Notes: generated from the letters alone by a model not told the origin. DNA of 40,702 bases from a virus (IMGVR_UViG_3300045988_072105:1-40702); one strand, 5' to 3'. Counted from the stretch's first letter, positions 23,846 to 38,096 are shown. Made by a program: numbers and translations.

Positions 23846-24231
23846 GGATTCACCTCCAATAACTCTGGATTTTCGTAGATATTGCCGAGGATCTCCTCAG
23901 CCCCAGTCCACGCATATCCTTCTTTAATTCCTTTTAGATATATAGCGGGCATGCCTCCTATGTATGTACCACCATATTCTTTTTCTAGGTATACTTCATG
24001 AGGACATCCTCTGGTACATTTTATAATGTCCCCAACAAAGACCTCTTTTCCATTCTTGTCTTTGAGGCCTGTTGATTGCATGAGAATCAATTCTGACTTT
24101 TCGACAGGCATAGGAAAATTGTAGCCCGATGTTGGTTTTTCCATGTTGCAAATCAAGCCGTTATCTGTGATAAAAAAATGTTCTACGAATTTCTTTTCTA
24201 CGCTATCCCACGCTCTAAATTTTGGTATCAT
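23842..24231 (-). CDS. YopX-family protein
   Basis: MIPKFRAWD...MQSTGLKDKNGKEVFVGDII...GNIYENPELL is the classical YopX pattern. Confidence 0.85.
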   Translation of the reverse strand: MIPKFRAWDSVEKKFVEHFFITDNGLICNMEKPTSGYNFPMPVEKSELILMQSTGLKDKNGKEVFVGDIIKCTRGCPHEVYLEKEYGGTYIGGMPAIYLKGIKEGYAWTGAEEILGNIYENPELLEVNP

Positions 24232-24394
24232 CTTGTACCTCTTTTTCTACTGTAATTTCAAATTTATAATCATTTATGCTTAAAGGTAAAACTGCCCCTG
24301 TATTTGATTCGTCTTTCAATAAATCTAAGATAATCTCTAAAACTTTCTTACCTAAAATCAATTGTGTCTCTACAATATTTTGCTCTTCAGCCAT
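24215..24394 (-). CDS. Small acidic hypothetical protein
   Basis: ~59 aa. The ATG overlaps the upstream TGA. GAGG upstream. Confidence 0.55.
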   Translation of the reverse strand: MAEEQNIVETQLILGKKVLEIILDLLKDESNTGAVLPLSINDYKFEITVEKEVQDDTKI

Positions 24395-25158
24395 CACTCC
24401 ACCTCATCAACTTCAAACAATGGGCTGTCAAACACTCCCCTAAAGCCCGCTTTTTCAAGCTCTTTGCGGGTGTGTGCGTCTTTCGTGTAGCTATATTCAG
24501 CATCTTCCCCAAAATACCAACTGTCCAAAATTTTATCCAGTTTTAAGATTGTAGACGATTTGTTCACCCCTTTCATTTTCACTCGATACCGCTTTTCTTT
24601 CTCGACCTCGTAGCCATTGATCCAAGCAAGAGCGAAGATTTCTTGGTTTTCTTTCTTTTTGATCCATAATATTAATTCAAAACTTTGGTTATTTGCTTTC
24701 AAAAAACTTGGAGTCATAGCAAGATAGAGAGAACTTGTAAGATGTTCTTTACATACTTCAATCCAATCAGCAACAAACTGCGGTACTGTTGGCCTATTCA
24801 ACTCTTGCCGAATTTTATCAGCGTCTTTTAATTGTTGACCAACCCATTCCCCCTCTAATTTTCCTTGCTCGTATCCAGCCTTATATTTCGAAGCTCCGTA
24901 ATTGCTGCCGAATTTATATAAAATATCATCTAGCCATTCCAAACGTGTTAATCCATTCAATCCTTCCATTCGGGCGATAATATCTTTTAATTTAATTTTA
25001 TTTCTTTCAACAAAATCACTTGCATTTTTTACAAAATGTCTTGGGACTTCTACTCTATCGCCATTATCCAAAATCAAATTTATATTATTTTCGCCCTCGG
25101 TACTCCGACTAAAACCGTCATAAGTTCCATATAATAAAAGTCTAGTCCATTCGTTCAT
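24394..25158 (-). CDS. DUF1642-like phage protein
   Basis: 254 aa. The C-terminal half (..VPQFVADWIE..TRKELEKAGFRGVFDSPLFEVDEVE) resembles DUF1642 of lactic-acid-bacteria phages. Confidence 0.7.
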   Translation of the reverse strand: MNEWTRLLLYGTYDGFSRSTEGENNINLILDNGDRVEVPRHFVKNASDFVERNKIKLKDIIARMEGLNGLTRLEWLDDILYKFGSNYGASKYKAGYEQGKLEGEWVGQQLKDADKIRQELNRPTVPQFVADWIEVCKEHLTSSLYLAMTPSFLKANNQSFELILWIKKKENQEIFALAWINGYEVEKEKRYRVKMKGVNKSSTILKLDKILDSWYFGEDAEYSYTKDAHTRKELEKAGFRGVFDSPLFEVDEVE

Positions 25159-25655
25159 TCCCTTACCTCCTCAATTCTTGCGATCGGGTTGTTTCGAAGC
25201 CACCCGAGGCCGTGCCGTTCGATCTCGTCATTCGTGAACGTCTGCGTAAACTCGATAGTGTATCGTGTCTCGTCTTGGATCTCCACGAGGTACGTCTTCC
25301 AACCTTCTTTTGGATTCTTCGACTTGGACAATAGACTCCGCAAGCTATCGATCTTTTGCTTGGTCTGATCCGCTATCTCGTGTAGCGTTCCCGTTGCCGT
25401 GAGCTTGCCTTTGTGATAATAGGCAAACATTCGGAGTTTGACGGGCGATCCCAAGAGCTCGGTCTCTGTGACGTTGAAGACTGCGCATAGATCCTCAATT
25501 GCGTACTGGCACGGCATACGTTCGCCCCGCTCCCAACTTGTGATCGTGTTATACGACCATCCCAGCTTTCGAGCGAGCTTGCTTTTTGTCCATCCCCGCT
25601 CTTTTTCGAAGCCGGACCAAATTTTTCGGGAATCGTTGACGCTGATCGCTGTCAT
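25155..25655 (-). CDS. XRE-type HTH protein with an uncharacterised C-terminal domain
   Basis: ..WTKSKLARKLGWSYNTITSWERGERMP.. is an HTH_3 pattern. ATGA coupling at both ends. Confidence 0.75.
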   Translation of the reverse strand: MTAISVNDSRKIWSGFEKERGWTKSKLARKLGWSYNTITSWERGERMPCQYAIEDLCAVFNVTETELLGSPVKLRMFAYYHKGKLTATGTLHEIADQTKQKIDSLRSLLSKSKNPKEGWKTYLVEIQDETRYTIEFTQTFTNDEIERHGLGWLRNNPIARIEEVRE

Positions 25656-25882
25656 AATTTATCAATTCCATCTTCTGACCCTCTTCCCCACTTAAAGATT
25701 TTCACGTCGTATTTTTTACCATCGACCGTAATCAATTTACTAGCTCCGCGCACATCTTCTCTGCCTTCGATTTGCTTTATAAGTCCGACGCAAGTTTCAC
25801 CAAGAAATAGTTGACTTTCTATTTCGTCGTATCTCTTATCTTCCATTGCGCCGATAACTTCATAGTACGTTTTTTCTTTCAT
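25652..25882 (-). CDS. Hypothetical protein (76 aa)
   Basis: Start moved to the ATG at 25882 (AAGGAG, 7-nt spacer; ATGA overlap with the upstream stop). Confidence 0.6.
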   Translation of the reverse strand: MKEKTYYEVIGAMEDKRYDEIESQLFLGETCVGLIKQIEGREDVRGASKLITVDGKKYDVKIFKWGRGSEDGIDKL

Positions 25883-26100
25883 CCTTTCGCTCCTTCCGCT
25901 TGAGCTTCTAGCCATTCAAACAAGAGCCCGAATTGTTTCACTACCAGATCATTGTCATTGTACTTTTTGCAGATCTCCGCTATCGAGCCCGTTACCCATA
26001 GCCAATACCGATCAGTATTAAAACCGACTGTCTGTGCCACCTGGTTACTTTGGGCCATCCATTCCGGGATCTCCACGCTAAAGAAATGTATATAATTCAT
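25879..26100 (-). CDS. Hypothetical protein (73 aa)
   Basis: Start moved to the ATG at 26100 (GAGGAG, 7-nt spacer). The longer ORF-track version overlaps rusA by 122 nt. Confidence 0.6.
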   Translation of the reverse strand: MNYIHFFSVEIPEWMAQSNQVAQTVGFNTDRYWLWVTGSIAEICKKYNDNDLVVKQFGLLFEWLEAQAEGAKG

Positions 26101-26497
26101 CGTTCCACTCCTCGACTCTGACATAGATTCCCACGACCTCACTCCAAAATTTTTCAGCGATCTCGCTTGCCACTTCTGCGTCATTTTTCCAAAAGCCAAC
26201 CTCTGACATGCAATCCTTGAATAACTTTTGAAGGTTGTCCGTGTCTGGTGCAGTTGTTTTGTACTGTCCAGACCGTACTCCCTTAATCATCGGAAAGCAC
26301 CATTTGACTGTGAGCCGGATCGGCCCTTTCAACTTATCCGGGGGAACGTGACGCGCAAGCAAACTTTCAAATTTCGCTCGAGCGTTTTTTAGCTCCTCTG
26401 GCTCGTAAAAAATCGGTTTGCCATTTCTGACGTTTACTTTCTTTTGTTGGTGCGTTGTTGTCGGAATTTTTTCCATCGACAAAAAGAATTCGATCAT
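26078..26497 (-). CDS. rusA: RusA-family Holliday junction resolvase
   Basis: 139 aa. ..KTTAPDTDNLQKLFKDCMSEVGFWKNDAEV.. matches the RusA catalytic Asp-rich motif. Confidence 0.85.
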   Translation of the reverse strand: MIEFFLSMEKIPTTTHQQKKVNVRNGKPIFYEPEELKNARAKFESLLARHVPPDKLKGPIRLTVKWCFPMIKGVRSGQYKTTAPDTDNLQKLFKDCMSEVGFWKNDAEVASEIAEKFWSEVVGIYVRVEEWNDELYTFL

Positions 26498-26665
26498 TTA
26501 TTCGTCCTCATAAAACAAGAAGATCAGCACGTCCTCTCCAATTGTCTGGACGTCAGTATTGATCCATACCTTCCCGGCTTTTTCCAAATACTCAAGAAAG
26601 AGATTCACCTCTTTTTCTAAGTCCGGAAAAAATCTCACGTTCGATTTGAAAAATTTTACTTTCAT
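26498..26665 (-). CDS. 55-aa Cse60-like small protein (below the ORF-track cut-off)
   Basis: My own translation: MKVKFFKSNVRFFPDLEKEVNLFLEYLEKAGKVWINTDVQTIGEDVLIFLFYEDE. The stop abuts the rusA ATG. The RBS is weak. Confidence 0.45.
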   Translation of the reverse strand: MKVKFFKSNVRFFPDLEKEVNLFLEYLEKAGKVWINTDVQTIGEDVLIFLFYEDE

Positions 26666-26732
26666 ATATTTTTTACCATTTCTTTTTTACTTTTTCTTTT
26701 TAGCTCCACGCTCTCGCGCTTCGTCCATGTTT

Positions 26733-26978
26733 GGGGACAGGGTTACAGGGTTACAGGGGGCGAGAGCAAAGCCCCCCTGTTCCTGTTCCTGTACCCATGG
26801 ACCATCAGGGACATTTTCCTAAATCTCTCTCTCCGGAGGAGGAGAGATTCTGTCCCTCATTTTGTCCCTAGGGACATTTTCGATAGACACATTCGACTTT
26901 GTCCTTCGACTTTGTCCTTGTCCCTCATTTTGTCCCTAGGGACATTTTCGATTGTTTTTTGTCCTTGTCCTTGTCCCT
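26733..26978. repeat. Putative origin of replication: array of TGTCC(C/T)T / AGGGACA iterons with nested direct and inverted repeats
   Basis: At least 12 heptamer copies. One 34-bp perfect direct repeat (26851-26884 = 26919-26952). A tandem 13-mer TTCGACTTTGTCC x2 (26892-26917). A 14-bp palindrome TGTCCCTAGGGACA occurring twice. An imperfect long inverted repeat at 26733-26796. An AT-rich tract lies next to it at 26640-26700. Confidence 0.7.
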
Positions 26979-29262
26979 AGGTGTCTGTTTTTGCTATAAT
27001 TTCTTTGTTTTTCACTTCAAAATTACCATTATTTTTTATCCATCTACGGACTGTTTTTTCGCTGACAGGTTTATCCTCTGTTGAAAAATAATCGATCAGA
27101 TCATCAATTGTAACAGGACTCATTCCATCATCAAGGGCCTCGATAGCCGTTTCGATTCTTTCGGAGCGTTTTTCGGTTCGCTCTTCTTTTGATAATTTCT
27201 TATCAAAATTTTTCTTCCATGGTGAATTATTCCCGTTCGTGTCCTCCCCAAGCTGAATATCAGCAAGGACGCCCGAATCATCCAAGAAATGCACGGGATA
27301 ACTGAACCACATATTGATAGGCTTGAATTTGGCAAACTCTCGGAGCGTTCCTTCCACGCGCCACGCTGTCGAAATTTCGATCGCATGACGGGCTTGTTCG
27401 ATCTTGTCCGTCCATGGCTTCCGATCTAGGATATTCGGAATGGCTCTTTCAAAGTGTGTCCGCATGATTGCAGCACTTTGGAGATCGTCGAGCGTGACTT
27501 CCTCTTGGTAATATCCAAGGTTGCACTTTTGCAAGGCCTCTTTGTAGATATGGCATGCCGTATGATTGATACGTTGCGCGATCAATTCCTCCGTGACTTC
27601 CAATTCCATCAAGTCGATCAACGCGTCCGGATCTCGAGCGAATACGCCTGATCCACTAGCCCGATCCATTGACTTCTTGTTACCTTGTGAGCCCTTCGAG
27701 TGGTGATGGCAATAGATAACCGAGCACCCGAGCTCTGTCGCCACTTTGTCAAACTGATTCGTAAAGTGCGCCATCTGATCTGCGCTGTTTTCGTCACCCG
27801 TCAAGACTTTATAGATCGGGTCAATAATAACCGCGATATAGTTCTTTTTGAGCGATCGGCGGATCAATTTCGGAGCTAACTTGTCCATCGGTACAGTCTT
27901 ACCGCGCAAGTTCCAAATATCGATATTTTGTAAGTTGTTCGGTTGCAATCCCATGGCTTCGTACACGTCGCGGAATCTGTGAAGACATGACGCACGGTCT
28001 AGCTCAAGATTGACATATAGGACCTTGCCTTGCGTACACTTCCATTCGAGCCATTTTTGCCCCTCTGCGATTGCAATTGACATTTCGATCAAGCTGAATG
28101 ACTTCCCGGCCTTGGATGGCCCGGCGATCAGCATTTTGTGTCCTTGTCGAAGGACGCCTTGAATCAGCTCGGGCGCAAGCTCTGGAAGATTGTCCCAACT
28201 ATCCCCGAGGCCTTCGGGATCTGGAAGATCGTCGTTTAAGTCCTCGATATACTGATACCATTCTTCCCAATTTCTTTTTCCTATATTGGTATCAACAAGG
28301 AATTGTTTTTGGCCGTTTCGCTCGAATCCCGGCATACGAGACAAGCGAGACGGATTGCGGTTTTGTGTATCAACCGAGATCCCGTTCTTCTGGCATATCT
28401 TATATAAATAGTCAACGCGCTTGCGGTATTCGTCATAGCTGCCCGCGTCCACCTTCACGATAGCGTGTAAGGATTTGTTTCCACTATATACGAGGGCCAC
28501 GATAGGAAGCTCGAGTTCTTTATAGATCGCGTTTTGTTTCTCCACGCTCATACTATCCGATTCGACGAGCGCATAGCGGAATTCTGTCACGTTCTCGTTC
28601 TTCGCGCCCTTACCGTCTAACGGATTGAAGCGAATCCACGCGCCCGCTTCTTTGTGATAGTCACCGAGGACCGCTCCGATATCTCCGTTGCATTTGGAAA
28701 GTTGCTCGATCAGTTGCCCCGCGGTCCGGTCGTATGCTCCCTTCGTTGGAAGCCATTTCTCAATCTCACCCGTCTCGTCGTTGACTTTCGGATAGCTTTC
28801 CGTGACGTATCCGACGTTTTCGGATGATTCAAACAAGGCTTCGAGGTATCGGATGATCTCTTGCGTCGGATTCCAGATTGACGGCTCATGGATCTCTTTT
28901 CCCTCGATCCAATTCTTATCAATTACGCGATAGTCCCGGTCGATCGTATCATTCCAATCGAGCTCGTGAGCGCCTTCGTTATCACTCGAGTATGGATTCA
29001 CCCACCCGTGATCTTTCGCAAGTTGGACGATCGTCCCACCCGTCACAATCGAGCCCGCTTGTTCGTTGAAAGTGTCCCACTTCTTGAAACACTCAAATTT
29101 ACGGTAACGCGTGTCATTCTGCGACCAATTATCCCAATCCGAAGCAGTGTACCCTTCATGTTTTAAGGCCATCCCGACATTGATCCATTCTTGATAGGAC
29201 AAAACGGCGGGGTTGATATGGTCGAGCAGCGGCAATAGATCAAACTCTCTCTCATTATTCAT
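26977..29262 (-). CDS. Primase/helicase replication protein (PriCT-2-like N-terminus, primase-polymerase-like middle, RecA/DnaB-like AAA_25 ATPase)
   Basis: 761 aa. N-terminal ..LSYQEWINVGMALKHEGYTASDWDNWS..; Walker A ..LIAGPSKAGKSFSLIEM..; Walker B-like ..YIAVIIDPIYK... Confidence 0.85.
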   Translation of the reverse strand: MNNEREFDLLPLLDHINPAVLSYQEWINVGMALKHEGYTASDWDNWSQNDTRYRKFECFKKWDTFNEQAGSIVTGGTIVQLAKDHGWVNPYSSDNEGAHELDWNDTIDRDYRVIDKNWIEGKEIHEPSIWNPTQEIIRYLEALFESSENVGYVTESYPKVNDETGEIEKWLPTKGAYDRTAGQLIEQLSKCNGDIGAVLGDYHKEAGAWIRFNPLDGKGAKNENVTEFRYALVESDSMSVEKQNAIYKELELPIVALVYSGNKSLHAIVKVDAGSYDEYRKRVDYLYKICQKNGISVDTQNRNPSRLSRMPGFERNGQKQFLVDTNIGKRNWEEWYQYIEDLNDDLPDPEGLGDSWDNLPELAPELIQGVLRQGHKMLIAGPSKAGKSFSLIEMSIAIAEGQKWLEWKCTQGKVLYVNLELDRASCLHRFRDVYEAMGLQPNNLQNIDIWNLRGKTVPMDKLAPKLIRRSLKKNYIAVIIDPIYKVLTGDENSADQMAHFTNQFDKVATELGCSVIYCHHHSKGSQGNKKSMDRASGSGVFARDPDALIDLMELEVTEELIAQRINHTACHIYKEALQKCNLGYYQEEVTLDDLQSAAIMRTHFERAIPNILDRKPWTDKIEQARHAIEISTAWRVEGTLREFAKFKPINMWFSYPVHFLDDSGVLADIQLGEDTNGNNSPWKKNFDKKLSKEERTEKRSERIETAIEALDDGMSPVTIDDLIDYFSTEDKPVSEKTVRRWIKNNGNFEVKNKEIIAKTDT

Positions 29263-30833
29263 TCAATCCCTCCGTTCTCTCTTTCTTTCTTTGTTGCTGC
29301 AATTCCGAGGCTCAATCCCAAAAGTCCGAGGACGCTGATCGCGATCCCGAATTCTGTCCCAGTTTTTGGGAGTGTAGCCGGTGTGCTGTACGCTTCGACT
29401 GTTTCTTCGAATTCGTTTTTCGCGTGGTTTTCGCTTGATTTTTCACGCGATTTAACAATCTTCACTTCTTCGACTTTCGGATCTTCTTTTGGTTTTGGCG
29501 TTGGTGTGTTTGGCTTGTCTTCTTTAGGTTCTGGAATCTCGACAATCAGTTCCGGCTTGTAATGCACGGGCGCGTCATTTGGTACGACTCCACCTTGCCA
29601 TTCTGGCTTGTCAATCTGCGGAGCGTCAAACGGTACAGTCCCACCCTTCCACTCTGGAAGATCCACGATCGGAGCTTCATTTGGCAATTCAAAGACTGGC
29701 TTGTTTTCACCTTTAGCGTCACCACGGCCTCCGACAAGTTGAGCGCGACTGGTTGAAATAGCGCCGTCAGTTTCGGCCTTGAGCTCGACCTTATTCGTCG
29801 GATTCGTTGAATCCTTGACCGCGTTCGTGAGCTTGGTTTTGTACCAAACGTAGATCATTCGATCCAAGCGATCCATAGTAATTTCAAACCCGTGCTCGCT
29901 CTTGCTCATGGACTTAATGAGATCTAGTGCTGATCCCTTATCGACCCAAGGCGTCACGCTATCGACATAATTCACCACGAGGTAGTCATCGACGAGCTTT
30001 TGATTGTCTGACATTTCGTCGATAATCTTGACATAATTCAATACTTTTCGAGCGTAATTGATCCGGATCGTCCAGTTGATGACGGTCGGGTCGTCTTTGT
30101 CTTGAGACCCCCACTTCGAGATCAATTCATCTGATCCGATCTCTTGCTCTTTACCGATCTGTGCTGTCACGACTGTACCGTTGAAATTCACGTTGACTGG
30201 CTTTCCGGATTCCACTTTGTCCGTCCATTTGGCGTCGAGCTTGAGGCTCATTTGTTTATTCAACGGGTGATTTTTGAAATAGTCGTTGAATACGGTCGTA
30301 ACTGTCCCGGCCTTGCTGTCCGCGGTTGCTTGACCGACGACGGCATTTTCTGGATTGTGTACGTCGAAAGTGAAGCTCGTTTGAAAAGTGACTTCTTCTG
30401 GAAGCGTGAACGTTACTTTGTCACCTTCGTTGATCTCAAGGTTGTCTGGAAAATGGACGTCCTTGTATTCCACGGTGAAAGACTGGTATTTTCCGTTGCC
30501 GTTCGATTGATCGACCACGACTTCCGGGTTTTCTACTCGAATTTGATCCCCGTCCTTTTCAAAAGTTGTCGGAGCGATTCCTCGTTCGCTAGTTGCGTTT
30601 CTATCCGCTTGATCGCTCTCTCCACCTTGAGAATCTTCGCGTTCAGTTCGTACTTGTCGAGAAATAGCCCCTTCTTCTTCAATTCGAGCGTTTTCAGTTC
30701 CGACTGTAAGCGTTGTGTTATCGTTTGTGACTTCGTTATTGGATTCATCCGCATAAGCCCCCTTAATTCCAAGTGTAGCCGTCGCAATCGTCGCGACTGT
30801 AAAAAGTGTTAATTTGTTAGTTTTCATTATCAT
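29259..30833 (-). CDS. LPXTG cell-wall-anchored surface adhesin (MSCRAMM/collagen-binding-like A region)
   Basis: 524 aa. Signal peptide MIMKTNKLTLFTVATIATATLGIKGAYA. Ig-fold adhesin-like region (..VINWTIRINY..). Two PEW(K/Q)GG(T/V)VP(F/N)DAP repeats. P/K/E-rich wall spacer. LPKTG followed by a TM segment and KKER tail. Confidence 0.9.
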   Translation of the reverse strand: MIMKTNKLTLFTVATIATATLGIKGAYADESNNEVTNDNTTLTVGTENARIEEEGAISRQVRTEREDSQGGESDQADRNATSERGIAPTTFEKDGDQIRVENPEVVVDQSNGNGKYQSFTVEYKDVHFPDNLEINEGDKVTFTLPEEVTFQTSFTFDVHNPENAVVGQATADSKAGTVTTVFNDYFKNHPLNKQMSLKLDAKWTDKVESGKPVNVNFNGTVVTAQIGKEQEIGSDELISKWGSQDKDDPTVINWTIRINYARKVLNYVKIIDEMSDNQKLVDDYLVVNYVDSVTPWVDKGSALDLIKSMSKSEHGFEITMDRLDRMIYVWYKTKLTNAVKDSTNPTNKVELKAETDGAISTSRAQLVGGRGDAKGENKPVFELPNEAPIVDLPEWKGGTVPFDAPQIDKPEWQGGVVPNDAPVHYKPELIVEIPEPKEDKPNTPTPKPKEDPKVEEVKIVKSREKSSENHAKNEFEETVEAYSTPATLPKTGTEFGIAISVLGLLGLSLGIAATKKERENGGIE

Positions 30834-30846
30834 TTACTCCTATTGT

Positions 30847-32430
30847 TTAATTTGGTAAGTATTCGCTCGCTCTGATCCCGTGCGGTATTCTCCACCCGTT
30901 GGCTGCGATTCGATCGATCATATTTCTTGCGTTCTCAAAACTCCACATTCCGACGTTTCGGAAGCCTCGACTCTCAAGGAATCGGATCTGCTTCGGTGTT
31001 GAAAGTCCTTCGTTTCTGCGCTTGTTTAAGCGGTCAAGTAAGAGATTCGCTTTCCCGGCGTTCCCCACTTTGTCGGTAAAAATACCGTACTTCTCGAGGG
31101 CCTTGAGTTGGTTTTCAGAAGGCGGGGCCATCTCCCATCCAAAGTTAGGGACATAATTCGAAAGATCTTCGGCATGGATAGACATTTCGAATTGAAGCGG
31201 ATCGACGAGTTTTCTCTTGCGTTTTCGCATTTCTGCGAGTTGCTTCGCAAGGGCTTCTTCGCGTTCTGCCACAACGTCTTCGGCGCTTTTTTCTTCCATG
31301 GCTTCGAGATCGAGCACGACGCCCGTTTCTTCTTCCATATTTTCGACCATTTTCTTCGCAACTTCCGGGCTCTCACATATCAAGTGAGCCGGGCGACAAA
31401 GTTCGTGCCGTTCGGTGTGCCATAAGAAATCGAGCAGAAGAAGCTCGTCTTTTCCCGGATGGAGACGCGTCCCACGTCCCACCATCTGCGAATAGAGCGC
31501 TCTGACTTTCGTCGGTCTCAATACCACCACGCAATCAACTGACGGGCAATCCCAGCCCTCTGTCAGTAACATTGAGTTGCAAAGAACGTTATAACGTCCC
31601 TTTTCAAAGTCTTCGAGCACTTCGGCCCGATCTTTCGACTCGCCGTTCACTTCAGCTGCCTTGAATCCTCGCTCGTTTAAAATATCACGGAATTTTTGGC
31701 TTGTTTTAACTAGTGGAAGAAAGACGACCGTTTTTCTGTCCTTGCAATATTCAGCCATTTCATCCGCAATCTGTACGAGGTACGGATCGAGTGCCGTTCC
31801 GACGTCGCTCGCTTTAAAATCACCCGCGGACATTGAAACGCTTGAGAGATCGAGATCAATCGGAATCGTTAAGGCTTTAATCTTGGAGAGATAGCCTTCC
31901 TTGATTGCTTGCACGAGTGAATATTCATAGGCCAAGCTGTCAAAGTACGATCCGAGGTTCTTCATATCTCCACGGTCGGGCGTTGCTGTAACCCCCAACA
32001 CTTCGGACTCTCCGAAATAGTTTAAAACTTTCTGATAGCCGTCTGATATGGCGTGGTGAGCTTCATCGACCACAATCACGTCAAACCAATCGGGCGGGAA
32101 TTGACTCAAGCGCTTTTCCCGTTGCATTGTCTGGACAGATCCCACGACCACTCGATACCAAGAGCCTATTGACGTACTTTCGGCCTTTTCTAGTGCCGTA
32201 CCGAGTCCCGTTGCGGTCTTGAGCTTGTCGCTTGCTTGATCCAATAATTCGGATCTGTGAGCGAGTACGAGGACGCGTTTCCCTTCTCGGACTTGATCTT
32301 CAATGATTTTCGAAAAGACGACCGTTTTCCCCGTCCCAGTTGGAAGGACGAGAAGGGTACGTTTTCGCCCTTCTGCCCACTCCTTCTGAACGGCTTCTCG
32401 CGCCTCTTGTTGATAAGGCCGTAATTTCAT
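30847..32430 (-). CDS. Superfamily 2 DEAD/DEAH-box helicase (ResIII + Helicase_C)
   Basis: ..LLVLPTGTGKTVVF.. (motif I), ..VIVVDEAHHA.. (motif II), ..VLGVTATP.. (motif III), ..QMVGRGTR.. (motif VI). Confidence 0.9.
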   Translation of the reverse strand: MKLRPYQQEAREAVQKEWAEGRKRTLLVLPTGTGKTVVFSKIIEDQVREGKRVLVLAHRSELLDQASDKLKTATGLGTALEKAESTSIGSWYRVVVGSVQTMQREKRLSQFPPDWFDVIVVDEAHHAISDGYQKVLNYFGESEVLGVTATPDRGDMKNLGSYFDSLAYEYSLVQAIKEGYLSKIKALTIPIDLDLSSVSMSAGDFKASDVGTALDPYLVQIADEMAEYCKDRKTVVFLPLVKTSQKFRDILNERGFKAAEVNGESKDRAEVLEDFEKGRYNVLCNSMLLTEGWDCPSVDCVVVLRPTKVRALYSQMVGRGTRLHPGKDELLLLDFLWHTERHELCRPAHLICESPEVAKKMVENMEEETGVVLDLEAMEEKSAEDVVAEREEALAKQLAEMRKRKRKLVDPLQFEMSIHAEDLSNYVPNFGWEMAPPSENQLKALEKYGIFTDKVGNAGKANLLLDRLNKRRNEGLSTPKQIRFLESRGFRNVGMWSFENARNMIDRIAANGWRIPHGIRASEYLPN

Positions 32431-32440
32431 TTATTCCCCC

Positions 32441-32962
32441 TTAAAATTGCCCGGGATTGAATCCTTGCGTTGGTTGTTGCTGATAGCCTTGAGATTGCTC
32501 CGGGTACGCGTTCAATACCTTCGTATAATCAACGTCTTCGGCATAGATCATGCTTTTTGCTTCGTTGTACTTGTTGCCGTTGTATTCACGAATTCCGACC
32601 TTACATACTCCGACTTTACCGACGATCGAATTCCAATCCATGCGAAGCGGTTCACCTTTTCGTTTTTGTCCGATTGATCCAAAGAACGCGGAAAGCATGC
32701 CTTCGGTTGAGCTGTGCAAGAATAAGTTATGACGGAGTTCTGTTTCGCCTTCGTTTGCCACGACTTGAAGATAGACTGTCGCTTTCGGACAAGCTGGCAA
32801 CTTGCCGGGATTTTGAGGGTTTGGCGTGTGACGTCCGCGATCATAGTTCTTGACTGTAAAATAGTAGAGACCTTCTGGCAATAGGACGAATTCAGAATCC
32901 TTTTGAATGGTGTCGTCCCAACCAAATTCGCGTTCAAAGTTGTTGTATTGTTGTTGTGTCAT
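32441..32962 (-). CDS. DUF669-family protein (SSB-like accessory of AAA_24 modules)
   Basis: 173 aa. ..FGWDDTIQKDSEFVLLPEGLYYFTV.. and a Q/P-rich tail ending in F. Usual neighbour of AAA_24 and helicase genes. Confidence 0.7.
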   Translation of the reverse strand: MTQQQYNNFEREFGWDDTIQKDSEFVLLPEGLYYFTVKNYDRGRHTPNPQNPGKLPACPKATVYLQVVANEGETELRHNLFLHSSTEGMLSAFFGSIGQKRKGEPLRMDWNSIVGKVGVCKVGIREYNGNKYNEAKSMIYAEDVDYTKVLNAYPEQSQGYQQQPTQGFNPGQF

Positions 32963-32976
32963 GATAATATTCTCCT

Positions 32977-33714
32977 TTAAGCTAAAATAGTAATTTTCTC
33001 GTTGCTAGCAAGTTCATTTTTTAAATAATTCGCGATGCTTTCGACGGCCTCTAATTTCCATTTACCACCATCTGCTTCAAAGAGCGCAAGGTTCGCCGAT
33101 TTGTTGATTCGGAAGACGAACTGACTAGCAGGCTGCTCTACTTCATTGAAAGTACGATATGGCCGCAAGGTTACTGGATTTGGAGTCTTAGCTTGTGCTA
33201 GACTTGCTACACCATCGCGAACTGTCGCCATTTGACTGACGCCATTGTCCTGTACTTCTGCACCTTTTTCGATTTTCAAATGGCTAGCAAAATCCAAGAC
33301 TAAATTTCGGTCTGCATCATCGATAAACATAGACTGCAACATGATATTAAATTCTTCTTGGTCGCGCCAATTGCTGAATGGAATAACTGGGACAGATGCT
33401 CTTACAGACACAAGCTGAGGGCGTTTGCCATTTTCAAAATCAACTTGATCATATACAGATACTTCTCGGAAACTGTCCACGACAACTACAAGTTTACGAC
33501 CACTGATGAAGTCATTATCTGATTTGAGATAATCGACAAGACTCTTGATTGTCTGAAGTTCAAGAATAGGTGCGTACTTACGAGGGTTAAGTTCCTGTAA
33601 GCTATATTCATTGCTGTCGAAATATTCCTTCCCAGTTCCTGAACGAATGATTTTATTTTCTTTACCCGCTAGTTCGACTGTGTAAGACAATGCTTCTTTG
33701 AGATTTTCTGTCAT
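32977..33714 (-). CDS. Hypothetical early protein (245 aa)
   Basis: Long ORF, co-oriented, tight spacing. I am not confident of any family. Confidence 0.7.
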   Translation of the reverse strand: MTENLKEALSYTVELAGKENKIIRSGTGKEYFDSNEYSLQELNPRKYAPILELQTIKSLVDYLKSDNDFISGRKLVVVVDSFREVSVYDQVDFENGKRPQLVSVRASVPVIPFSNWRDQEEFNIMLQSMFIDDADRNLVLDFASHLKIEKGAEVQDNGVSQMATVRDGVASLAQAKTPNPVTLRPYRTFNEVEQPASQFVFRINKSANLALFEADGGKWKLEAVESIANYLKNELASNEKITILA

Positions 33715-33716
33715 AG

Positions 33717-34139
33717 TTAGTTACCTGCTTTCTTTTTGTTGTAATCAATGATATTTGTATTTTGTTTTTCAATCTTTTCGATGAGTTCGCCAGTGTCGGT
33801 TCTCATATCTCCATTATCATCAAAGTAAGTCTGACCCGGAATACCACTTTTTAGCTCGTTAGCGTGAATTTTACCAGTGTCGTCGCGACCGACAATGACA
33901 GTTGTTGCGACACCTTTCTGTGGTGCCAAAGTGGATTTGACTTCCATACCTGTCTTAACAACAGTACGCTCATCGTCCGTTGACATCGTTAGTGTGATCG
34001 TTACCTTACGGGTTGCTTTAGCCTCTGTATTGAGGTCCAGAATATTCTCAAGGACTTTTTCAAGTTCTTTGTCAACCTTTTCTTGTAAGGCTGTATTTGC
34101 GATTTTCGACAAATCGATTTTAATAGTTTTATCTTTCAT
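33717..34139 (-). CDS. Hypothetical early protein (140 aa)
   Basis: ORF whose stop lies 2 nt before the next start. No family recognised. Confidence 0.7.
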   Translation of the reverse strand: MKDKTIKIDLSKIANTALQEKVDKELEKVLENILDLNTEAKATRKVTITLTMSTDDERTVVKTGMEVKSTLAPQKGVATTVIVGRDDTGKIHANELKSGIPGQTYFDDNGDMRTDTGELIEKIEKQNTNIIDYNKKKAGN

Positions 34140-34184
34140 AGATACTCCTTGTTATATTTTGCGATGATTTCTAATTCCTAAAAT

Positions 34185-35288
34185 CTACACCGTGAAGGGT
34201 AATTCTGGATCTTTCCGGACTTGATTTTGAATGACGTCAAGTGTAGCATCCCAATTCGCCACGATCATATCCCAATAATTTGCCGGGAAGTTTTCGATCG
34301 GTGTCCCCATCGGAAAGTGTCCGCGGATATATGCAACGTCTTGCAATTCGCTTTCTGTGACATTGTGCGGTGTCATTAAGTCGATAAGAGCTTGCGGAAG
34401 CGTTCCGCTTGTTTGCGTTTGTGCTTCTGGTTGCGGTGCGCGTCCCATTTCTCGGGCCACCTCTTGACCGATCTCGGTCAATTGTTCCTTGATATCGTTC
34501 TTCGGTTGCTCCTCTTGTTGAGGCTCTGGCGTTGGTTGTGTCGGTTGCGGTTGCGGTGTCACTTGTTGCGTTGCGAAAATATGCGCGATACTGTCATAAG
34601 TAAATGGCAATTGATCGGGCAATCCGTGACGGTTCTTCGCGTCCCACGCTGGGCGATGGTTCGTATACATGACACGCTCGCCCCCTTGGGCTTTCTTCTT
34701 GCCCGTATCCGTCGTCATGACGATTGTCTTATAATTCGCAAAGAGCACCATATCGGCCCACTCCTTCACGAGTGGAGCTGTTTTTGAGCTTGATTTTTGT
34801 CCGAGCTTTAATTCGTATCGATCGTACGATCCCATCTCGTCCGGCTGCTCGAATTTCTTGATTTGTGCGTGAGCTGTCAAAACGACGTTGATCCCGTTGT
34901 CCACTAGCTCACCCAAGCTATTCAATAAGCGACCGATCTCTTCTTGGACGTATGTATAGCCCTTGCCCCAGCCGAAATCTTCGATTCCGTTCTTCTGGTG
35001 CTGTGCGCAAACATAATCGACTGCGAGTTGTTCCGCCCAGTCGATCGTGTCGATGACTAGCGTTTTGCAAGCGTCCGGGTTCGCCTTGATAAACGCGATC
35101 TCATTTTTGAGCATTGCCCAACTTGTAGGCTTGTCCAACCGGGCCACGTCCATATTATCCGTTGATCCCTCGGTGTCGATGAATACCGGATCCGGGAATT
35201 GACTCGCAAAACTAGACTTTCCGATTCCTTCCGGGCCGTAGATGACGACTTTTTGAGCCCGTGCCTTCCTTCCTCTTGTAATTTGCAT
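34185..35288 (-). CDS. AAA_24 (Sak4-like) RecA-fold ATPase with a P/Q-rich linker and C-terminal extension
   Basis: ..KVVIYGPEGIGKSSFASQFPDPVFIDTEGS.. Walker A at the N-terminus. ..TLVIDTIDW.. Walker B. Confidence 0.85.
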   Translation of the reverse strand: MQITRGRKARAQKVVIYGPEGIGKSSFASQFPDPVFIDTEGSTDNMDVARLDKPTSWAMLKNEIAFIKANPDACKTLVIDTIDWAEQLAVDYVCAQHQKNGIEDFGWGKGYTYVQEEIGRLLNSLGELVDNGINVVLTAHAQIKKFEQPDEMGSYDRYELKLGQKSSSKTAPLVKEWADMVLFANYKTIVMTTDTGKKKAQGGERVMYTNHRPAWDAKNRHGLPDQLPFTYDSIAHIFATQQVTPQPQPTQPTPEPQQEEQPKNDIKEQLTEIGQEVAREMGRAPQPEAQTQTSGTLPQALIDLMTPHNVTESELQDVAYIRGHFPMGTPIENFPANYWDMIVANWDATLDVIQNQVRKDPELPFTV

Positions 35289-35291
35289 TTT

Positions 35292-35636
35292 CTATTCCTC
35301 CTCTTCTTCCGCTAAAAGGCCACGAAGAAAGTTTTTGATGTGCTTGCGTTTTGCTTCTTCGATCTCTTCTGTGAGATCTTTCGGTTCTTCTCCGTCGATA
35401 GTCTCGAGCTCATACGTTGCGTTGACGACGAGCAATTCGCCCCCGAACGCTTCGGCAACTTTTTGTATTTTGTTTGTTTGGTCTTGTACTGATTTTAGGA
35501 TATTTGTTGCAGCATCTTGAATATCGTCCGTCCAAGTTGCACTATACGCAAAAGCTCCTTCGTTGCTTTTGTACTTCATTAAATACTGACCTGTTTCTAG
35601 GCTTCGAATAACGACAAATTTTTCTGTTTTTTTCAT
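35292..35636 (-). CDS. Hypothetical acidic protein (114 aa)
   Basis: Start moved to the ATG at 35636 (AAGGAA RBS). The longer ORF-track version overlaps the upstream ATPase gene by 139 nt. Confidence 0.65.
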   Translation of the reverse strand: MKKTEKFVVIRSLETGQYLMKYKSNEGAFAYSATWTDDIQDAATNILKSVQDQTNKIQKVAEAFGGELLVVNATYELETIDGEEPKDLTEEIEEAKRKHIKNFLRGLLAEEEEE

Positions 35637-35659
35637 AGTTGTTTTCCTTCTTTCTGTTT

Positions 35660-36940
35660 TTAGAATCCGCCTTGCCATCCTTGAGGCTGTGCGATTGTTT
35701 CCGGTGTGATACTGTACCCGTCTTCGATAATCACGGAGCACTCTCCACCAGTTGAGACCCGCGTCGCGATCGCTTGCAAGCCTTCTTGTTCTAGCCATAC
35801 TCCAAATTCCATTAGTGTTACTTGGTCCATTTGCTCGAGCTTGTCAATAAGCACGAAGCCGCACTCTGGCTTGAGCTTGCGAACGATAGCCGTCGCGACT
35901 TGTAATTGTTGCGAGCCAGACATATTGTCCCAACGCTGACCGAGGTATAAGAGTTCGCCGTCGTCCACAGACAATCCCGGGAGCGGTAAGTCCGCGTTCG
36001 TGAGTAAGTCGCGTTTTTGCTTGCGAATACCCTCGATCACAAGATCTAACTCGCGGTATTGTTCACGGTAAACCTTCGCGTCTTCTTCGGCCTTGTCTTT
36101 GTCAAGGTTTGCTCGTACTTTGAGGTTGATCTGCTCAATATTCGCGATACTTTCTTCGATCTTTTGTGTCGATTCGTTGATCAAGTCTTGCGCGTCTTTG
36201 CGAGCGATATCCAAGTCTTGCGCGAGTCCTTGCTCTTTTTCTCGGGCTTCCTTGAGCATTTCTTCCAAACGCTCAACGTTTGCAAGTGCCCCTTGATAGT
36301 CGTTTTCGATTCTCGCTAGATTCTGACGCTTGCGAGCATTTTCGCTATTTCGTCCGAGGATCTCTTGTTGTTGTTGGATCAAGTCCGCGATTGAGACGAG
36401 CTCTTTCGGCGCGTCCGGATAATACGGTTGCTCCTTGGCAAACTTTTCTTTTTGATCTGCAATGACTCCGATTGCGTGGCGCTCTTGGTACTTGGTCTTT
36501 TCTTCCATTTCAAGCTTGACGAGCTGATCGCCCACTCCGATGATTTGTAAGAGCGTCGTCGCTTTCTCCTTGCTTGTCATTTCCATAAACTTTGGAAGAT
36601 CAAGAGCGAGCTCTTCGACGAAGCTATCAAGCAATTTCTGGCCGGCCTTGTTACCGCTTGGATCAATGACTTTCAGATCGCTATTTTTTCCCTTGCGCTC
36701 AACAATAAGGCCATTTGATAGTGTGATTTTTAGACTTGGGGGAATCGTTGACCCCTCGCGTTGAGGTTGCGAAGGTTTATACTTGTTGCCACCCAAGGCC
36801 CACGCTATCGCGTCCAATACGCTTGTCTTGCCTTGGTTATTGTTTCCCCCGACAATTGTCAGCCCTTTCGCTGACGGCTCGATCTTGACCGCTTTAACGC
36901 GTTTCACGTTTTCGATCTCGAGCTTATTGATTGTTACCAT
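35660..36940 (-). CDS. SMC/Rad50/SbcC-like ABC-type ATPase
   Basis: N-terminal ..LTIVGGNNNQGKTSVLDAIAWALGG.. (Walker A), central coiled coil, C-terminal ..MSGSQQLQVATAI.. (signature motif) and ..FVLIDKLEQMD.. (Walker B). Confidence 0.85.
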   Translation of the reverse strand: MVTINKLEIENVKRVKAVKIEPSAKGLTIVGGNNNQGKTSVLDAIAWALGGNKYKPSQPQREGSTIPPSLKITLSNGLIVERKGKNSDLKVIDPSGNKAGQKLLDSFVEELALDLPKFMEMTSKEKATTLLQIIGVGDQLVKLEMEEKTKYQERHAIGVIADQKEKFAKEQPYYPDAPKELVSIADLIQQQQEILGRNSENARKRQNLARIENDYQGALANVERLEEMLKEAREKEQGLAQDLDIARKDAQDLINESTQKIEESIANIEQINLKVRANLDKDKAEEDAKVYREQYRELDLVIEGIRKQKRDLLTNADLPLPGLSVDDGELLYLGQRWDNMSGSQQLQVATAIVRKLKPECGFVLIDKLEQMDQVTLMEFGVWLEQEGLQAIATRVSTGGECSVIIEDGYSITPETIAQPQGWQGGF

Positions 36941-37079
36941 CTTTTAGTTTCCTTTCCAATAGTTGATATTCACGATCAAGAGAAGCGGATAAAAGTTGAA
37001 TCTGTTCCCGTTCGATAGCTCGTAAGCGTTCGACTTCATTTTCTAGCTCTATGATCCGTTTTGATTTTCTACCAAACAT
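36924..37079 (-). CDS. Small coiled-coil protein (51 aa)
   Basis: ATG at 37079 with GGAG 8 nt upstream. The ORF-track N-terminal extension overlaps the upstream gene. Confidence 0.5.
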   Translation of the reverse strand: MFGRKSKRIIELENEVERLRAIEREQIQLLSASLDREYQLLERKLKDGNNQ

Positions 37080-37329
37080 GGCTCGTGCTCCAATCGTTGT
37101 CTGAAACAGATTGCTTGCGGGCATTTGCTAGATCTTCCCAGACACTCGCTTTTATTTCGCGATTGTATTCTTCTTGAAGATCGAGGATCTCTTGAATCTT
37201 CGCTTGCTGCCGTTTCTTCTTTTCTTGACGTTTGACATCAATCAAGCAAGTGATGAAGCCGGCCACGAAAGAGAATCCCGAAACAACGGCCACTCCCACT
37301 AACTGACTTGTAAGACTTGGTTCTAACAT
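37069..37329 (-). CDS. Small membrane protein (86 aa)
   Basis: N-terminal TM (LVGVAVVSGFSFVAGFITCLI). AAGGAG RBS. The start overlaps the upstream stop. Confidence 0.65.
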   Translation of the reverse strand: MLEPSLTSQLVGVAVVSGFSFVAGFITCLIDVKRQEKKKRQQAKIQEILDLQEEYNREIKASVWEDLANARKQSVSDNDWSTSHVW

Positions 37330-37592
37330 TTGATATACTCCTTTTCCATTTCTAAAATCTCGTACACGTCCCGGACGTCGTACATTTTCTTCTTTCCTTG
37401 TTTTCGAAATGCAAGTCCTCGACGCTCTAGCTTTTTAATGTAGCTATGATCGAAGCCGAATTTCTTCATTAAGGCTTTTTGATCTAGTGGTAATCTTTCC
37501 GATTCTATTTCTTCCTTGAGCTCTTCCTTCATGATCTCGATCATCTGTTTTAGATAGACTTTCGCGATCTCGTCCGAGATCAAGGGAGGCAT
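37323..37592 (-). CDS. Small DNA-binding-like early protein (possible excisionase/regulator)
   Basis: The C-terminal ..MKKFGFDHSYIKKLERRGLAFRKQGKKKMYDVRDV.. resembles a MerR/Xis-type HTH. The start is ambiguous (37592, 37607, 37616 or GTG 37640). The ATG at 37592 has a GGAGGAA RBS. Confidence 0.6.
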   Translation of the reverse strand: MPPLISDEIAKVYLKQMIEIMKEELKEEIESERLPLDQKALMKKFGFDHSYIKKLERRGLAFRKQGKKKMYDVRDVYEILEMEKEYIKC

Positions 37593-37645
37593 TTTTGCTT
37601 CCTCCATTTCTTTCATTCCTCCAATTGTGCGGGCAAGCACTTTCT

Positions 37646-37674
37646 GATATAATTAAGATAGATATTTTAAGCAA
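37646..37674 (-). promoter_or_regulatory. Candidate sigma-70 promoter downstream of the cro-like gene
   Basis: Minus strand: TTGCTT, 17 nt, TATATC. Confidence 0.3.
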
Positions 37675-37703
37675 GCGTCGGATTTTTCATCCGGCGTTCT
37701 TTT

Positions 37704-37720
37704 GTTCATGATTGATGAAC
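37704..37720. promoter_or_regulatory. Distal operator-like palindrome (OD): GTTCA-N7-TGAAC
   Basis: Perfect half-sites GTTCAtgattgaTGAAC overlapping the stop codon of the cro-like gene. Same architecture as the sites in the switch region. Confidence 0.6.
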
Positions 37721-37930
37721 TTTGTACTTAAAAAAATAAGCCGGGATATTCTTTGGATCAATCTCGAGCACCTCGACCGCTTTCGCAATCTCGCTATCCT
37801 TCCAAGAGACCTTATTATTCAGCTTTAGCGATACGCTTCTTTCTGATATTCCCAAGGCGTTGGCGAATTCTGCTTGCGTTCCGAATTTCTCGGTGATCTT
37901 ACCCAAGAGTTTTGAATAATCATTGCTCAT
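37706..37930 (-). CDS. Cro-like XRE/DUF739-type HTH protein (first gene of the lytic operon)
   Basis: MSNDYSKLLGKITEKFGTQAEFANALGISERSVSLKLNNK... ATG at 37930 with GAAAGGAGGG RBS. Divergent from the repressor gene. Confidence 0.85.
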   Translation of the reverse strand: MSNDYSKLLGKITEKFGTQAEFANALGISERSVSLKLNNKVSWKDSEIAKAVEVLEIDPKNIPAYFFKYKVHQS

Positions 37931-37950
37931 ATTATCCCTCCTTTCTTTTT

Positions 37951-38034
37951 TGTTCACGTTACATGAACTTGATATGGTTTAAGTTTATCATGCTTCATGA
38001 ACTTTGTCAACAACTTTTTTCATTTTTTTTGAAC
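37951..38034. promoter_or_regulatory. Genetic-switch operator cluster: three 17-bp sites of the form (G/T)(T/A)TCA-N7-TGAAC
   Basis: 37951-37967 GTTCAcgttacaTGAAC; 37986-38002 TATCAtgcttcaTGAAC; 38018-38034 TTTCAtttttttTGAAC. Centres are 35 and 32 bp apart. Confidence 0.65.
37982..38010 (-). promoter_or_regulatory. Early lytic promoter (PR-like)
   Basis: Minus strand: TTGACA (38010-38005), 17 nt, TAAACT (37987-37982). The middle operator lies in the spacer. Confidence 0.6.
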
Positions 38035-38070: not shown

Positions 38071-38096
38071 ATAGTAGAAAAAAGGAGATGAACATC

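Follow-up and report, generated by a model that had tools for sequence, protein, structure and literature searches.

The subject of this analysis is a gene for a putative cell-surface protein carried by a viral sequence of 40,702 nucleotides (nt) (IMGVR_UViG_3300045988_072105, of which the whole length is called the window hereafter). The window spans an entire prophage of a temperate, siphovirus-like phage, in which all genes lie on the minus strand except those for an integrase, an M78 protease and a helix-turn-helix (HTH) repressor. Between the genes for a superfamily 2 (SF2) DNA helicase and a primase-helicase lies an open reading frame (ORF) whose predicted product ends in an LPXTG-type sorting signal (Table 1). 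An initial annotation, made from the sequence alone, had read this ORF as a sortase-anchored adhesin that is wired into the phage replication operon and lacks transcription signals of its own. Indeed, the ORF of 524 amino acids is found where it had been placed, on the minus strand, which had been left unstated. Pfam, NCBIfam, an AlphaFold model and Foldseek agree on a sortase-type adhesin related to the microbial surface components recognizing adhesive matrix molecules (MSCRAMMs), and comparison of the window with related phages supports the proposed wiring.

The true start of the gene is probably the second ATG rather than the first, because an AGGAG ribosome-binding site (RBS) precedes the second by 9 nt and the first by only 3 nt, and because nearly all homologs begin at the second with the residues MKTNKL. 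A signal peptide of the Sec type had been proposed for the N terminus. This prediction is consistent with the typical n-, h- and c-regions and the AYA/DE cleavage site read by eye from MKTNKLTLFTVATIATATLGIKGAYA and the DE that follows it, all of which are kept in 28 homologs.

Beyond the signal peptide and a hypervariable spacer, the protein is predicted to carry a two-domain MSCRAMM A region, composed of DEv-IgG domains, on a stalk of a type other than Cna_B. The Ig-fold, collagen-binding-like region that had been noticed previously corresponds to Pfam matches to Big_8 and Collagen_bind, both above their gathering cutoffs, and the VINWTIRINY stretch used to recognize it falls within the Collagen_bind match. 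Cna_B, which had also been considered, has no match to the protein in Pfam. A first AlphaFold run on 28 close homologs gave a predicted local distance difference test (pLDDT) score of 35 and was discarded. The model of the core, covering residues 80 to 385 and built from a diverse alignment, has a pLDDT score of 86.7 and a predicted template modeling (pTM) score of 0.71.

When this core model was compared with known structures by Foldseek, Cnm, Cna, RspB, Ace and SdrG were matched with E values from 1e-14 to 6e-18, and the probability was 1.00 for Cnm, Cna, RspB and Ace. The best match is the collagen-binding region of Streptococcus mutans Cnm (8jl8, E 6e-18), and the match to Staphylococcus aureus Cna (2f68) has a template modeling (TM) score of 0.68 and a root-mean-square deviation of 4.4 Å. 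The fibrinogen-binding proteins SdrG, ClfA and Bbp were matched as well, with SdrG and ClfA scoring nearly as high as the collagen binders. In the viral structure library there was only one real structural relative, a “clumping factor” of a metagenomic siphovirus. Searches of PDB sequences with the protein and with the family profile gave no match, and the protein belongs to no family in PHROGs or PADLOC. The RGD triplet within GGRGDAKGENK was considered as an integrin-binding motif and dropped; the position is R, K or H among homologs.

The C-terminal portion of the protein comprises the stalk and the sorting signal. Two stretches that had been described as PEW(K/Q)GG(T/V)VP(F/N)DAP repeats are identified by NCBIfam as SIALI-17 repeats (NF043031, a 17-residue PEWxGGxxPxDAP unit; 41.8 bits versus a cutoff of 30). 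These are followed by a segment rich in Pro, Lys and Glu, and then by LPKTG, 22 hydrophobic residues and the tail KKERENGGIE. The same elements had earlier been read as LPKTG, a transmembrane segment and KKER, and they are matched by the NCBIfam LPXTG_anchor model TIGR01167 at 18.4 bits, above its cutoff of 15.9, whereas the Pfam model Gram_pos_anchor reaches 16.7 bits and falls below its cutoff of 20. The extended tail has a net charge of approximately zero. No sortase gene is encoded in the window, and therefore the sortase A (SrtA) of the host would be required for anchoring.

Table 1. Positions in the window of the LPXTG gene, the parts of its product, and neighboring features
Feature	Position	Strand	Basis or remark
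LPXTG surface-protein gene	29259..30833	minus	524 amino acids from first ATG; 522 from probable start at 30827
Predicted Sec signal peptide MKTNKLTLFTVATIATATLGIKGAYA, predicted cleavage before DE	30750..30827	minus	by eye and conservation in 28 homologs
Hypervariable N-terminal spacer, residues 27-84	30576..30749	minus	alignment; disordered in first model
Predicted two-domain MSCRAMM ligand-binding core, residues 80-385	29673..30590	minus	Pfam, AlphaFold and Foldseek
Big_8, residues 116-207	30213-30488	minus	Pfam E 2.8e-12, 47.1 bits, cutoff 22.9
Collagen_bind, residues 236-350	29784-30128	minus	Pfam E 4.9e-11, 43.4 bits, cutoff 27.5
Two SIALI-17 repeats, 17 amino acids each: PEWKGGTVPFDAPQIDK and PEWQGGVVPNDAPVHYK	29556..29657	minus	NCBIfam NF043031
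Pro/Lys/Glu-rich stalk, presumed wall-spanning	29382..29555	minus	read from sequence; length varies among homologs
Sorting signal: LPKTG (29358-29372), hydrophobic TEFGIAISVLGLLGLSLGIAAT, tail KKERENGGIE, stop	29259..29372	minus	TIGR01167
AGGAG RBS	30837..30841	minus	9 nt upstream of ATG 30827; directly 3′ of helicase stop
GGAGGG RBS of primase gene, inside LPXTG gene tail	29268..29273	minus	sequence
Upstream neighbor, SF2 DNA helicase	30847..32430	minus	Pfam ResIII and Helicase_C; PHROG phrog_16, E 1.5e-108
Downstream neighbor, primase-helicase	26977..29262	minus	Pfam PriCT_2 and AAA_25; PHROG phrog_2597, 1256 bits
Best candidate early promoter, TTGACA-17 nt-TAAACT, extended -10 (TG immediately upstream)	37982..38010	minus	promoter scan
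HTH repressor (HTH_3)	38088-38489	plus	right end of window; M78 protease (Peptidase_M78) also there, plus strand
Integrase	39511-40638	plus	right end of window

The helicase-primase junction

The anatomy of the two junctions leaves little sequence that belongs to neither the LPXTG gene nor its neighbors. On the upstream side, the sequence after the stop codon of the helicase gene (30847-30849) reads ACAATAGGAGTAAATGATAATG. The 13-nt gap reported earlier holds to the first ATG and extends to 19 nt if the likelier start is used, and this interval contains an RBS only. In phage Javan377, in which the site is empty, the primase gene makes use of this RBS block. On the downstream side, the LPXTG ORF ends in GGAGGGATTGAATGA, and the RBS of the primase gene lies within its last codons. 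The ATGA overlap described in the initial annotation is real (29259-29262), with the primase ATG (29260-29262) overlapping the LPXTG stop codon, and this arrangement may permit translational coupling between the two genes.

The overlap itself is a derived state specific to the window. In the closest relative (L008), the gene ends at a stop codon and a spacer of 21 nt follows; 7 nt (GATTAAA) are missing from the window at this place. This deletion created the overlap and lengthened the protein tail from KKED to KKERENGGIE. Among relatives that carry the gene in the same slot, the spacer between the LPXTG and primase genes is usually 19 to 22 nt and holds no hairpin.

A scan of the coding strand of the window revealed no promoter-like or terminator-like site flanking the gene, which is consistent with the earlier conclusion that there is no room for either. 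The best candidate early promoter faces away from the HTH repressor gene and is located approximately 7 kilobases (kb) upstream of the LPXTG gene, and the scan found no convincing terminator in the intervening sequence. Another promoter-like site, TTGTCG-16 nt-TAAAAT with TG immediately upstream of the -10 element, is present at 33895..33868 and is conserved in 11 relatives. The internal promoter-like sites at 33895, 33370, 32881 and 35179 are conserved no more than the coding sequence that surrounds them.

The composition of the gene also matches that of its neighbors. Its GC content is 47.3% (49.5% at third codon positions, GC3), the helicase gene has 49.4% GC and the primase gene 47.5%, and GC, GC3 and codon usage of the LPXTG gene all agree with those of these two genes. 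An earlier hand count of about 45% GC was thus slightly low, and its conclusion that the composition resembles the phage backbone stands.

Related phages provide natural versions of this site with other contents. In Javan377, a phage of Streptococcus parasanguinis, the order is helicase-TAA-AAAAGGAGAAAACA-GTG-primase with nothing between, and the sites of Javan380 and Javan381 are likewise empty. In Javan311, from Streptococcus mitis, a homolog occupies the identical slot between helicase and primase. Judged against the empty site of Javan377, the cassette is exactly one ORF in size.

To obtain occupancy figures, the slot was sampled in IMG/VR through the helicase and not through the adhesin. 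Among the 76 informative contigs (within L110-L185), 26 (34%) carry an LPXTG gene, 36 (47%) are empty, and 14 (18%) hold other cargo. Most of the other cargo encodes DNA methyltransferases, either of the C5 type (PF00145, E 8e-89) or of the N6/N4 type (PF01555); the remainder comprises a short methylase-like protein and a Cys-rich protein of 168 to 206 amino acids that has no Pfam match. The junction between helicase and primase is thus a hotspot for accessory genes, which would be carried along on the early transcript. DNA methyltransferases are needed while phage DNA replicates, and the cargo is therefore of a kind that fits early expression. When the features of a moron are sought in the LPXTG gene of the window, it is found to be dispensable cargo that has neither a promoter nor a terminator of its own.

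Two other characteristics of this part of the window were observed. First, the region from 24000 to 38000 has a mosaic composition, wherein the helicase, LPXTG, primase and AAA_23/AAA_24 genes have 47 to 50% GC; the ORFs at 32977-34139 and the DUF1642 gene at 24394-25158, like the integrase gene, have 36 to 40%. This pattern suggests modules of different origin. Second, an iteron-like array (26800-26985) is present in the 310-nt gap that follows the primase gene. The array contains two copies of a 34-nt unit, TGTCCCTCATTTTGTCCCTAGGGACATTTTCGAT, at a spacing of 68 nt and including the palindrome TGTCCCTAGGGACA, as well as copies of TGTCC(C/T)T and AGGGACATTTTC, and it may serve as the replication origin of the phage.

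Related loci in other streptococcal phages

More than 7,900 homologous proteins were found at E ≤ 1e-5, many of them encoded on contigs of 38 to 48 kb. The loci examined were drawn from isolate and metagenome-assembled genomes (13 loci from S. parasanguinis, Streptococcus salivarius and Streptococcus sp.), from IMG/VR (80 loci), and from phage records and assemblies. All of the approximately 190 related loci are phage-like. This includes the 102 loci fetched via the protein, in which the gene is always co-oriented among early genes. The ORF is intact, and the sorting motif, searched for as LPx[TSA][GAN], is present in 101 of the 102 homologs. The neighboring genes encode helicase, primase, single-stranded DNA-binding protein (SSB), RusA, DUF1642, an HTH regulator, a MazG-like protein or a RepA_N/DnaB_2 replisome organizer, in at least eight combinations. 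The placement of an adhesin gene in the early region is a widespread rather than a rare arrangement, and homologs are annotated in deposited phage genomes.

The loci fall into two types. Type A is found in phages like those of S. mitis and S. parasanguinis and includes the window. Here the gene is separated from its upstream neighbor by 0 to 30 nt or overlaps it by 4 to 14 nt, in contexts that include helicase to primase, helicase to methylase-like gene, SSB to DUF1642, MazG-like gene to DUF1642, HTH gene to DUF1642, Cys-rich protein gene to primase, and RusA to a small ORF, among others. Type B is found in phages of S. salivarius, including YMC-2011 and SA-TP2, wherein the gene follows a conserved leader of approximately 215 nt and the next gene begins 2 nt downstream, or the replisome organizer gene approximately 47 nt downstream. 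The S. salivarius members also have a different and longer signal peptide.

A sigma-70-like site within 320 nt upstream occurs at 8 of 100 loci, versus approximately 20 expected from a background of 0.2 per 320 nt, and no sigma-70-like promoter is conserved among the 100 loci in any context. A different type of signal is present where the downstream gene encodes DUF1642 (for example, L026, L044, L059 and L074). There, the LPXTG stop codon is immediately followed by a GC-rich hairpin and its T-rich tail, GAGGGGGATTATTCCCCCTTGATTTT, which are conserved and have a predicted stability of -14 to -20 kcal/mol. This hairpin does not occur in the helicase-primase slot; it may function as an attenuator or as a 3′ end that stabilizes the mRNA. 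Thus, the expectation of co-expression with early lytic genes is well supported by the arrangement of the sequences, and what does not hold is uniform wiring across the family, given the hairpins and leaders found elsewhere. The window represents the most tightly integrated type.

Selection on the gene was evaluated by comparing the window with 33 phages in which the gene occupies the same slot. The median ratio of nonsynonymous to synonymous substitution rates (ω) is 0.03 for the helicase and 0.06 for the primase. Within the LPXTG protein, ω is 0.06 for the core (residues 85 to 380, with synonymous divergence, dS, saturated), 0.26 for the stalk, and 1.26 for the N-terminal spacer. The core is under purifying selection. 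The binding head is therefore conserved for function, and the surface-exposed spacer is either free to vary or diversifying. Among relatives, the LPXTG protein is 63 to 73% identical where the helicase is 94 to 98% identical. Fast evolution of the whole protein was rejected as an explanation for this difference, since the analysis by region resolves it into a conserved core and a variable spacer and stalk. The alignment attributes most of the low overall identity to the spacer and to gain and loss of repeats, the number of which varies.

Two comparisons show that the cassette moves between phage lineages. Relative to the closest relative of the window, dS is 0.08 in the core and 0.43 to 0.59 in the flanks. 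In addition, the LPXTG genes of a 64-kb phage (L107) and of CJLB-5, a phage of 38 kb, are 87.8% identical at the nucleotide level across 950 bp, and L107 otherwise has no match in the phage collection save a methylase-gene segment that is common to other streptococcal phages.

The leader that precedes the Type B genes merits description in its own right. It is located directly 5′ of the LPXTG gene in Javan535, SA-TP2 and YMC-2011 (L004:4529-4746, L005:4492-4709 and L006:4477-4694) and at 18 IMG/VR loci, and it forms a long-range stem plus a second, small hairpin, which is located immediately upstream of the RBS and contains two covarying pairs. The stem includes three consecutive compensatory pairs, UCC/GGA in 11 sequences and CGU/ACG in 9. 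Across the alignment, 98.8% of cells are paired, versus 26 to 42% in controls with slid partners, and there are 46 compensatory double changes versus 0 to 2 in the controls, although the variation comprises approximately two haplotypes and hence few independent events. The many G-U pairs point to an RNA on the sense strand. No Rfam family was found for the leader, for the window, or for six related loci, and the S. salivarius-type element is absent from the window. We regard the leader as a candidate cis-regulatory or processing RNA of an undescribed kind.

With respect to existing records, the allele of the window is 90 to 92% identical only to metagenomic sequences. Deposited homologs have 47 to 64% amino acid identity to it and include Javan311_0032, Javan371_0023, Javan535_0035, SA-TP2 gp23 and YMC-2011 Ssal_phage00024. 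Their annotations read “putative peptidoglycan bound protein,” “WapA” (Javan371_0023), “LPXTG cell wall anchor domain-containing protein,” or “sialidase” (Javan535_0035). The last of these (L004:4744-6465; the gene is also present in Javan534 and Javan539) is a homolog of the LPXTG/SIALI-17 adhesin, and its label probably confuses “SIALI” with sialidase. We found no literature that analyzes the position, regulation or function of these homologs. A second label that is probably wrong is the host name of “Campylobacter phage CJLB-5” (L007, MW057932.1), for which both the LPXTG homolog and the gene layout are streptococcal and the relatives are named Streptococcus sanguinis, Streptococcus panodentis or Streptococcus sp. 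The notion that this phage represents spread beyond Gram-positive hosts was rejected, as all its relatives are streptococcal; L107, with which it has 87.8% of nucleotides in common, is likewise a contig of streptococcal type.

More distant subfamilies reside in the replication clusters of 55- to 64-kb phages, of which INPHARED contains no characterized relative. The streptococcal phages of 62 to 64 kb that carry the gene encode their own family-A DNA polymerase (L107:8767-11934 and L186:11870-15224), and in the 21 kb seen of one of them all genes lie on one strand and no lysogeny gene is present. The polymerase gene is split around a LAGLIDADG-like ORF in L107 and is called as two adjacent ORFs in L186. 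In L107, the genes for YopX and the LPXTG protein overlap by 8 nt. A protein of 279 amino acids from S. sanguinis (P0220), named as a SIALI-17 repeat protein, combines a precomputed Pfam match to YopX (PF09643) with an LPXTG anchor, as if the upstream phage YopX gene had been fused to the tail of the adhesin gene.

Proposed timing and role of the adhesin

The reading that we favor is that the gene is an early-transcribed cassette for a sortase-anchored adhesin that promotes adhesion or aggregation of cells in which the phage is productive. We estimate the probability of this reading at approximately one half. Its starting points are the observed architecture, fold, junction anatomy, absence of consensus transcription signals, recurrence, purifying selection and mobility. 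In this proposal, the gene is an accessory cassette in the cargo slot of a temperate streptococcal siphovirus. Because it carries no promoter or terminator of its own, it would be read as one segment of the long early (replication) transcript that starts at a repressor-controlled early promoter. Co-expression with the early lytic genes is well supported by the sequence comparisons. The product would be exported by the Sec pathway and anchored to the cell wall by host sortase A, with a Cna/Cnm-type DEv-IgG head held off the wall by the SIALI-17 repeats and the stalk. Cells in which the prophage has been induced, or which have been infected, would display it on their surface, and the quiescent lysogen would not. 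The productive cell could then stick to a conserved ligand in the host or pellicle matrix, or on neighboring bacteria, and would thereby burst inside a dense, susceptible community. We consider adhesion or aggregation of productive cells to be the likeliest benefit, to which the LPXTG adhesins that conjugative plasmids and integrative and conjugative elements produce alongside their transfer genes offer the nearest functional parallel.

Several points weigh against this proposal. The phage is temperate, as its integrase and repressor indicate, which makes a benefit to the lysogen a natural alternative. The terminator-like hairpin and the structured leader of other lineages show that members of the family can be regulated separately, and a promoter that departs from the sigma-70 consensus, or one within an upstream gene, could still be present. 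The near-neutral KKERENGGIE tail might weaken the sorting signal. Identity between the protein and the characterized adhesins matched by Foldseek is just 13 to 17%, a level at which similarity of fold does not single out a ligand. Moreover, a search of the literature found no expression, localization or binding data for members of this family.

A bolder version of the same proposal can be put forward only tentatively. In this version, the mobile early adhesin of oral streptococcal phages glues the induced or productively infected cell to matrix or to susceptible neighbors before lysis and thereby enhances transmission, and the S. salivarius copies are controlled by the leader RNA. Such a protein would be the phage counterpart of conjugative aggregation substance and would represent a kind of accessory function that has so far not been reported from phages.

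Adhesins carried by phages are usually interpreted as agents of lysogenic conversion, to the benefit of the bacterial host. Applied here, that reading would have the adhesin made in the lysogen, whether from a non-canonical or internal promoter, by leaky read-through, or in a spontaneously induced subpopulation, wherein it would assist oral colonization by the host and benefit the phage indirectly. The integrase, HTH repressor and M78 protease are those of a temperate phage, and prophage-borne LPXTG genes in general, such as those of phiD12-like prophages of group B Streptococcus, have been interpreted in this manner (PMC6546898). The hairpin that ends the gene in several sister contexts is moron-like, and the S. 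salivarius leader could hide a promoter or a regulatory RNA. A spacer with ω near 1.3 is also what would be expected from prolonged exposure to host immunity. What makes this explanation rather unlikely is the position of the gene: the window has no room for a promoter, none is conserved in at least eight contexts, and the gene overlaps flanking replication genes at many loci. Furthermore, the cargo otherwise found in the same slot consists mostly of DNA methyltransferases, and the gene is also carried by the 62- to 64-kb phages with DNA polymerase A, in one of which no lysogeny genes were present in the 21 kb seen.

Early production is equally predicted if the protein serves to exclude superinfecting phages, mask receptors or protect progeny. 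An early wall-anchored protein could cover or bind a phage receptor and prevent progeny from being wasted on debris, on which covalent attachment to the wall would let it outlast lysis. In function it would then resemble T5 Llp or T4 Imm and Sp. Variation in stalk length by gain and loss of repeats would be expected if reach past wall polymers matters. We nevertheless regard this function as improbable. The fold is that of adhesins for protein or peptide ligands, and stoichiometric masking therefore seems unlikely; the receptors of streptococcal siphoviruses are usually abundant wall glycopolymers. Phages from the S. mitis, S. parasanguinis, S. salivarius and S. sanguinis groups all keep the core strongly conserved, which points to a common ligand rather than to receptors that differ by strain, and searches of PADLOC and PHROGs gave no similarity to known exclusion or defense proteins.

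Finally, a functionless passenger, in the form of a pseudogene or of a host adhesin gene captured by illegitimate recombination and still retained by chance, would explain why the gene is dispensable (the slot is empty in 47% of related phages) and why the window copy has no normal stop codon, but it is very hard to reconcile with a core ω of approximately 0.06 across 33 phages, the intact ORF and sorting motif in 101 of 102 loci, a composition in full agreement with that of the flanking genes, the recurrent movement of the cassette from one phage to another that is unrelated, and the phage-like nature of all of the roughly 190 loci.

If the adhesin is indeed made early in productive cells, as we favor, then these abundant streptococcal phages of the mouth and gut would alter the cell surface shortly before lysis. 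The anatomy of the window and of approximately 100 related phages points to production in the replicative phase rather than in the lysogen. This would have consequences for the spread of phages in biofilms and for coaggregation in dental plaque, and possibly for tissue adhesion by viridans streptococci responsible for endocarditis. Direct tests are possible, since inducible lysogens (YMC-2011, SA-TP2 and Javan-type prophages) and natural empty-site controls exist. In addition, the helicase-primase junction constitutes a defined cargo slot that can be mined for other early-acting accessory genes.

Comparison with known systems

The closest known proteins in terms of architecture are the Cna-type MSCRAMMs, which include S. 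aureus Cna, S. mutans Cnm and WapA, Enterococcus faecalis Ace and Erysipelothrix rhusiopathiae RspB. Like these, the window protein is predicted to have a signal peptide, two DEv-IgG domains and an LPXTG motif. Unlike these, it has no Cna_B repeats and carries SIALI-17 repeats and a Pro/Lys/Glu stalk in their place. The Cna-type genes are chromosomal and under their own regulation, whereas the gene described here resides in a phage replication operon. The resemblance of its product to these collagen binders, which act by the “collagen hug” mechanism, is one of fold. The homologs in deposited phages are likewise early-region genes that share the strand of the replication genes, and they differ from the window in that the derived ATGA overlap is found only in the latter.

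Other mobile elements carry proteins of a comparable type. PrgB, PrgA and PrgC of pCF10 are LPXTG adhesion and aggregation proteins of a conjugative plasmid. Integrative and conjugative elements likewise encode LPXTG adhesins, such as the antigen I/II-type Bsp proteins of TnGBS elements (PMC10117131). The gene of the window resembles these in being borne by a mobile element, in encoding a sortase-anchored product, and in lying in an inducible transfer or replication block, and theirs serve contact with the next host. No relationship in sequence was detected, the Pfam matches of the window protein being to Big_8 and Collagen_bind only. The carrier here is also a phage capable of lytic growth, such that the producing cell dies, and the function of its adhesin is one that we infer.

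Among phage genes, lambda lom and bor and SasX of a staphylococcal prophage exemplify morons and lysogenic-conversion adhesins. The window gene shares with them the character of dispensable surface-protein cargo in a temperate phage. It differs in having neither a promoter nor a terminator of its own, and its place is within the early operon, not at the edge of a module or beside the attachment site.

Envelope proteins that are made early in lytic growth and benefit the phage are represented by T5 Llp and T4 Imm and Sp. Another phage-encoded envelope protein is Ltp of Streptococcus thermophilus phage TP-J34 (PMC3952083). The adhesin of the window would likewise be a phage-encoded envelope protein that benefits the phage. 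In contrast to it, all of these are lipoproteins or membrane proteins rather than sortase substrates, Ltp is expressed from the lysogeny module, and no homology to them was found with PHROGs or PADLOC. Thus, both the type of adhesin and the concept of phage cargo are familiar, and what is unusual is the conserved wiring of such a gene into the early operon.

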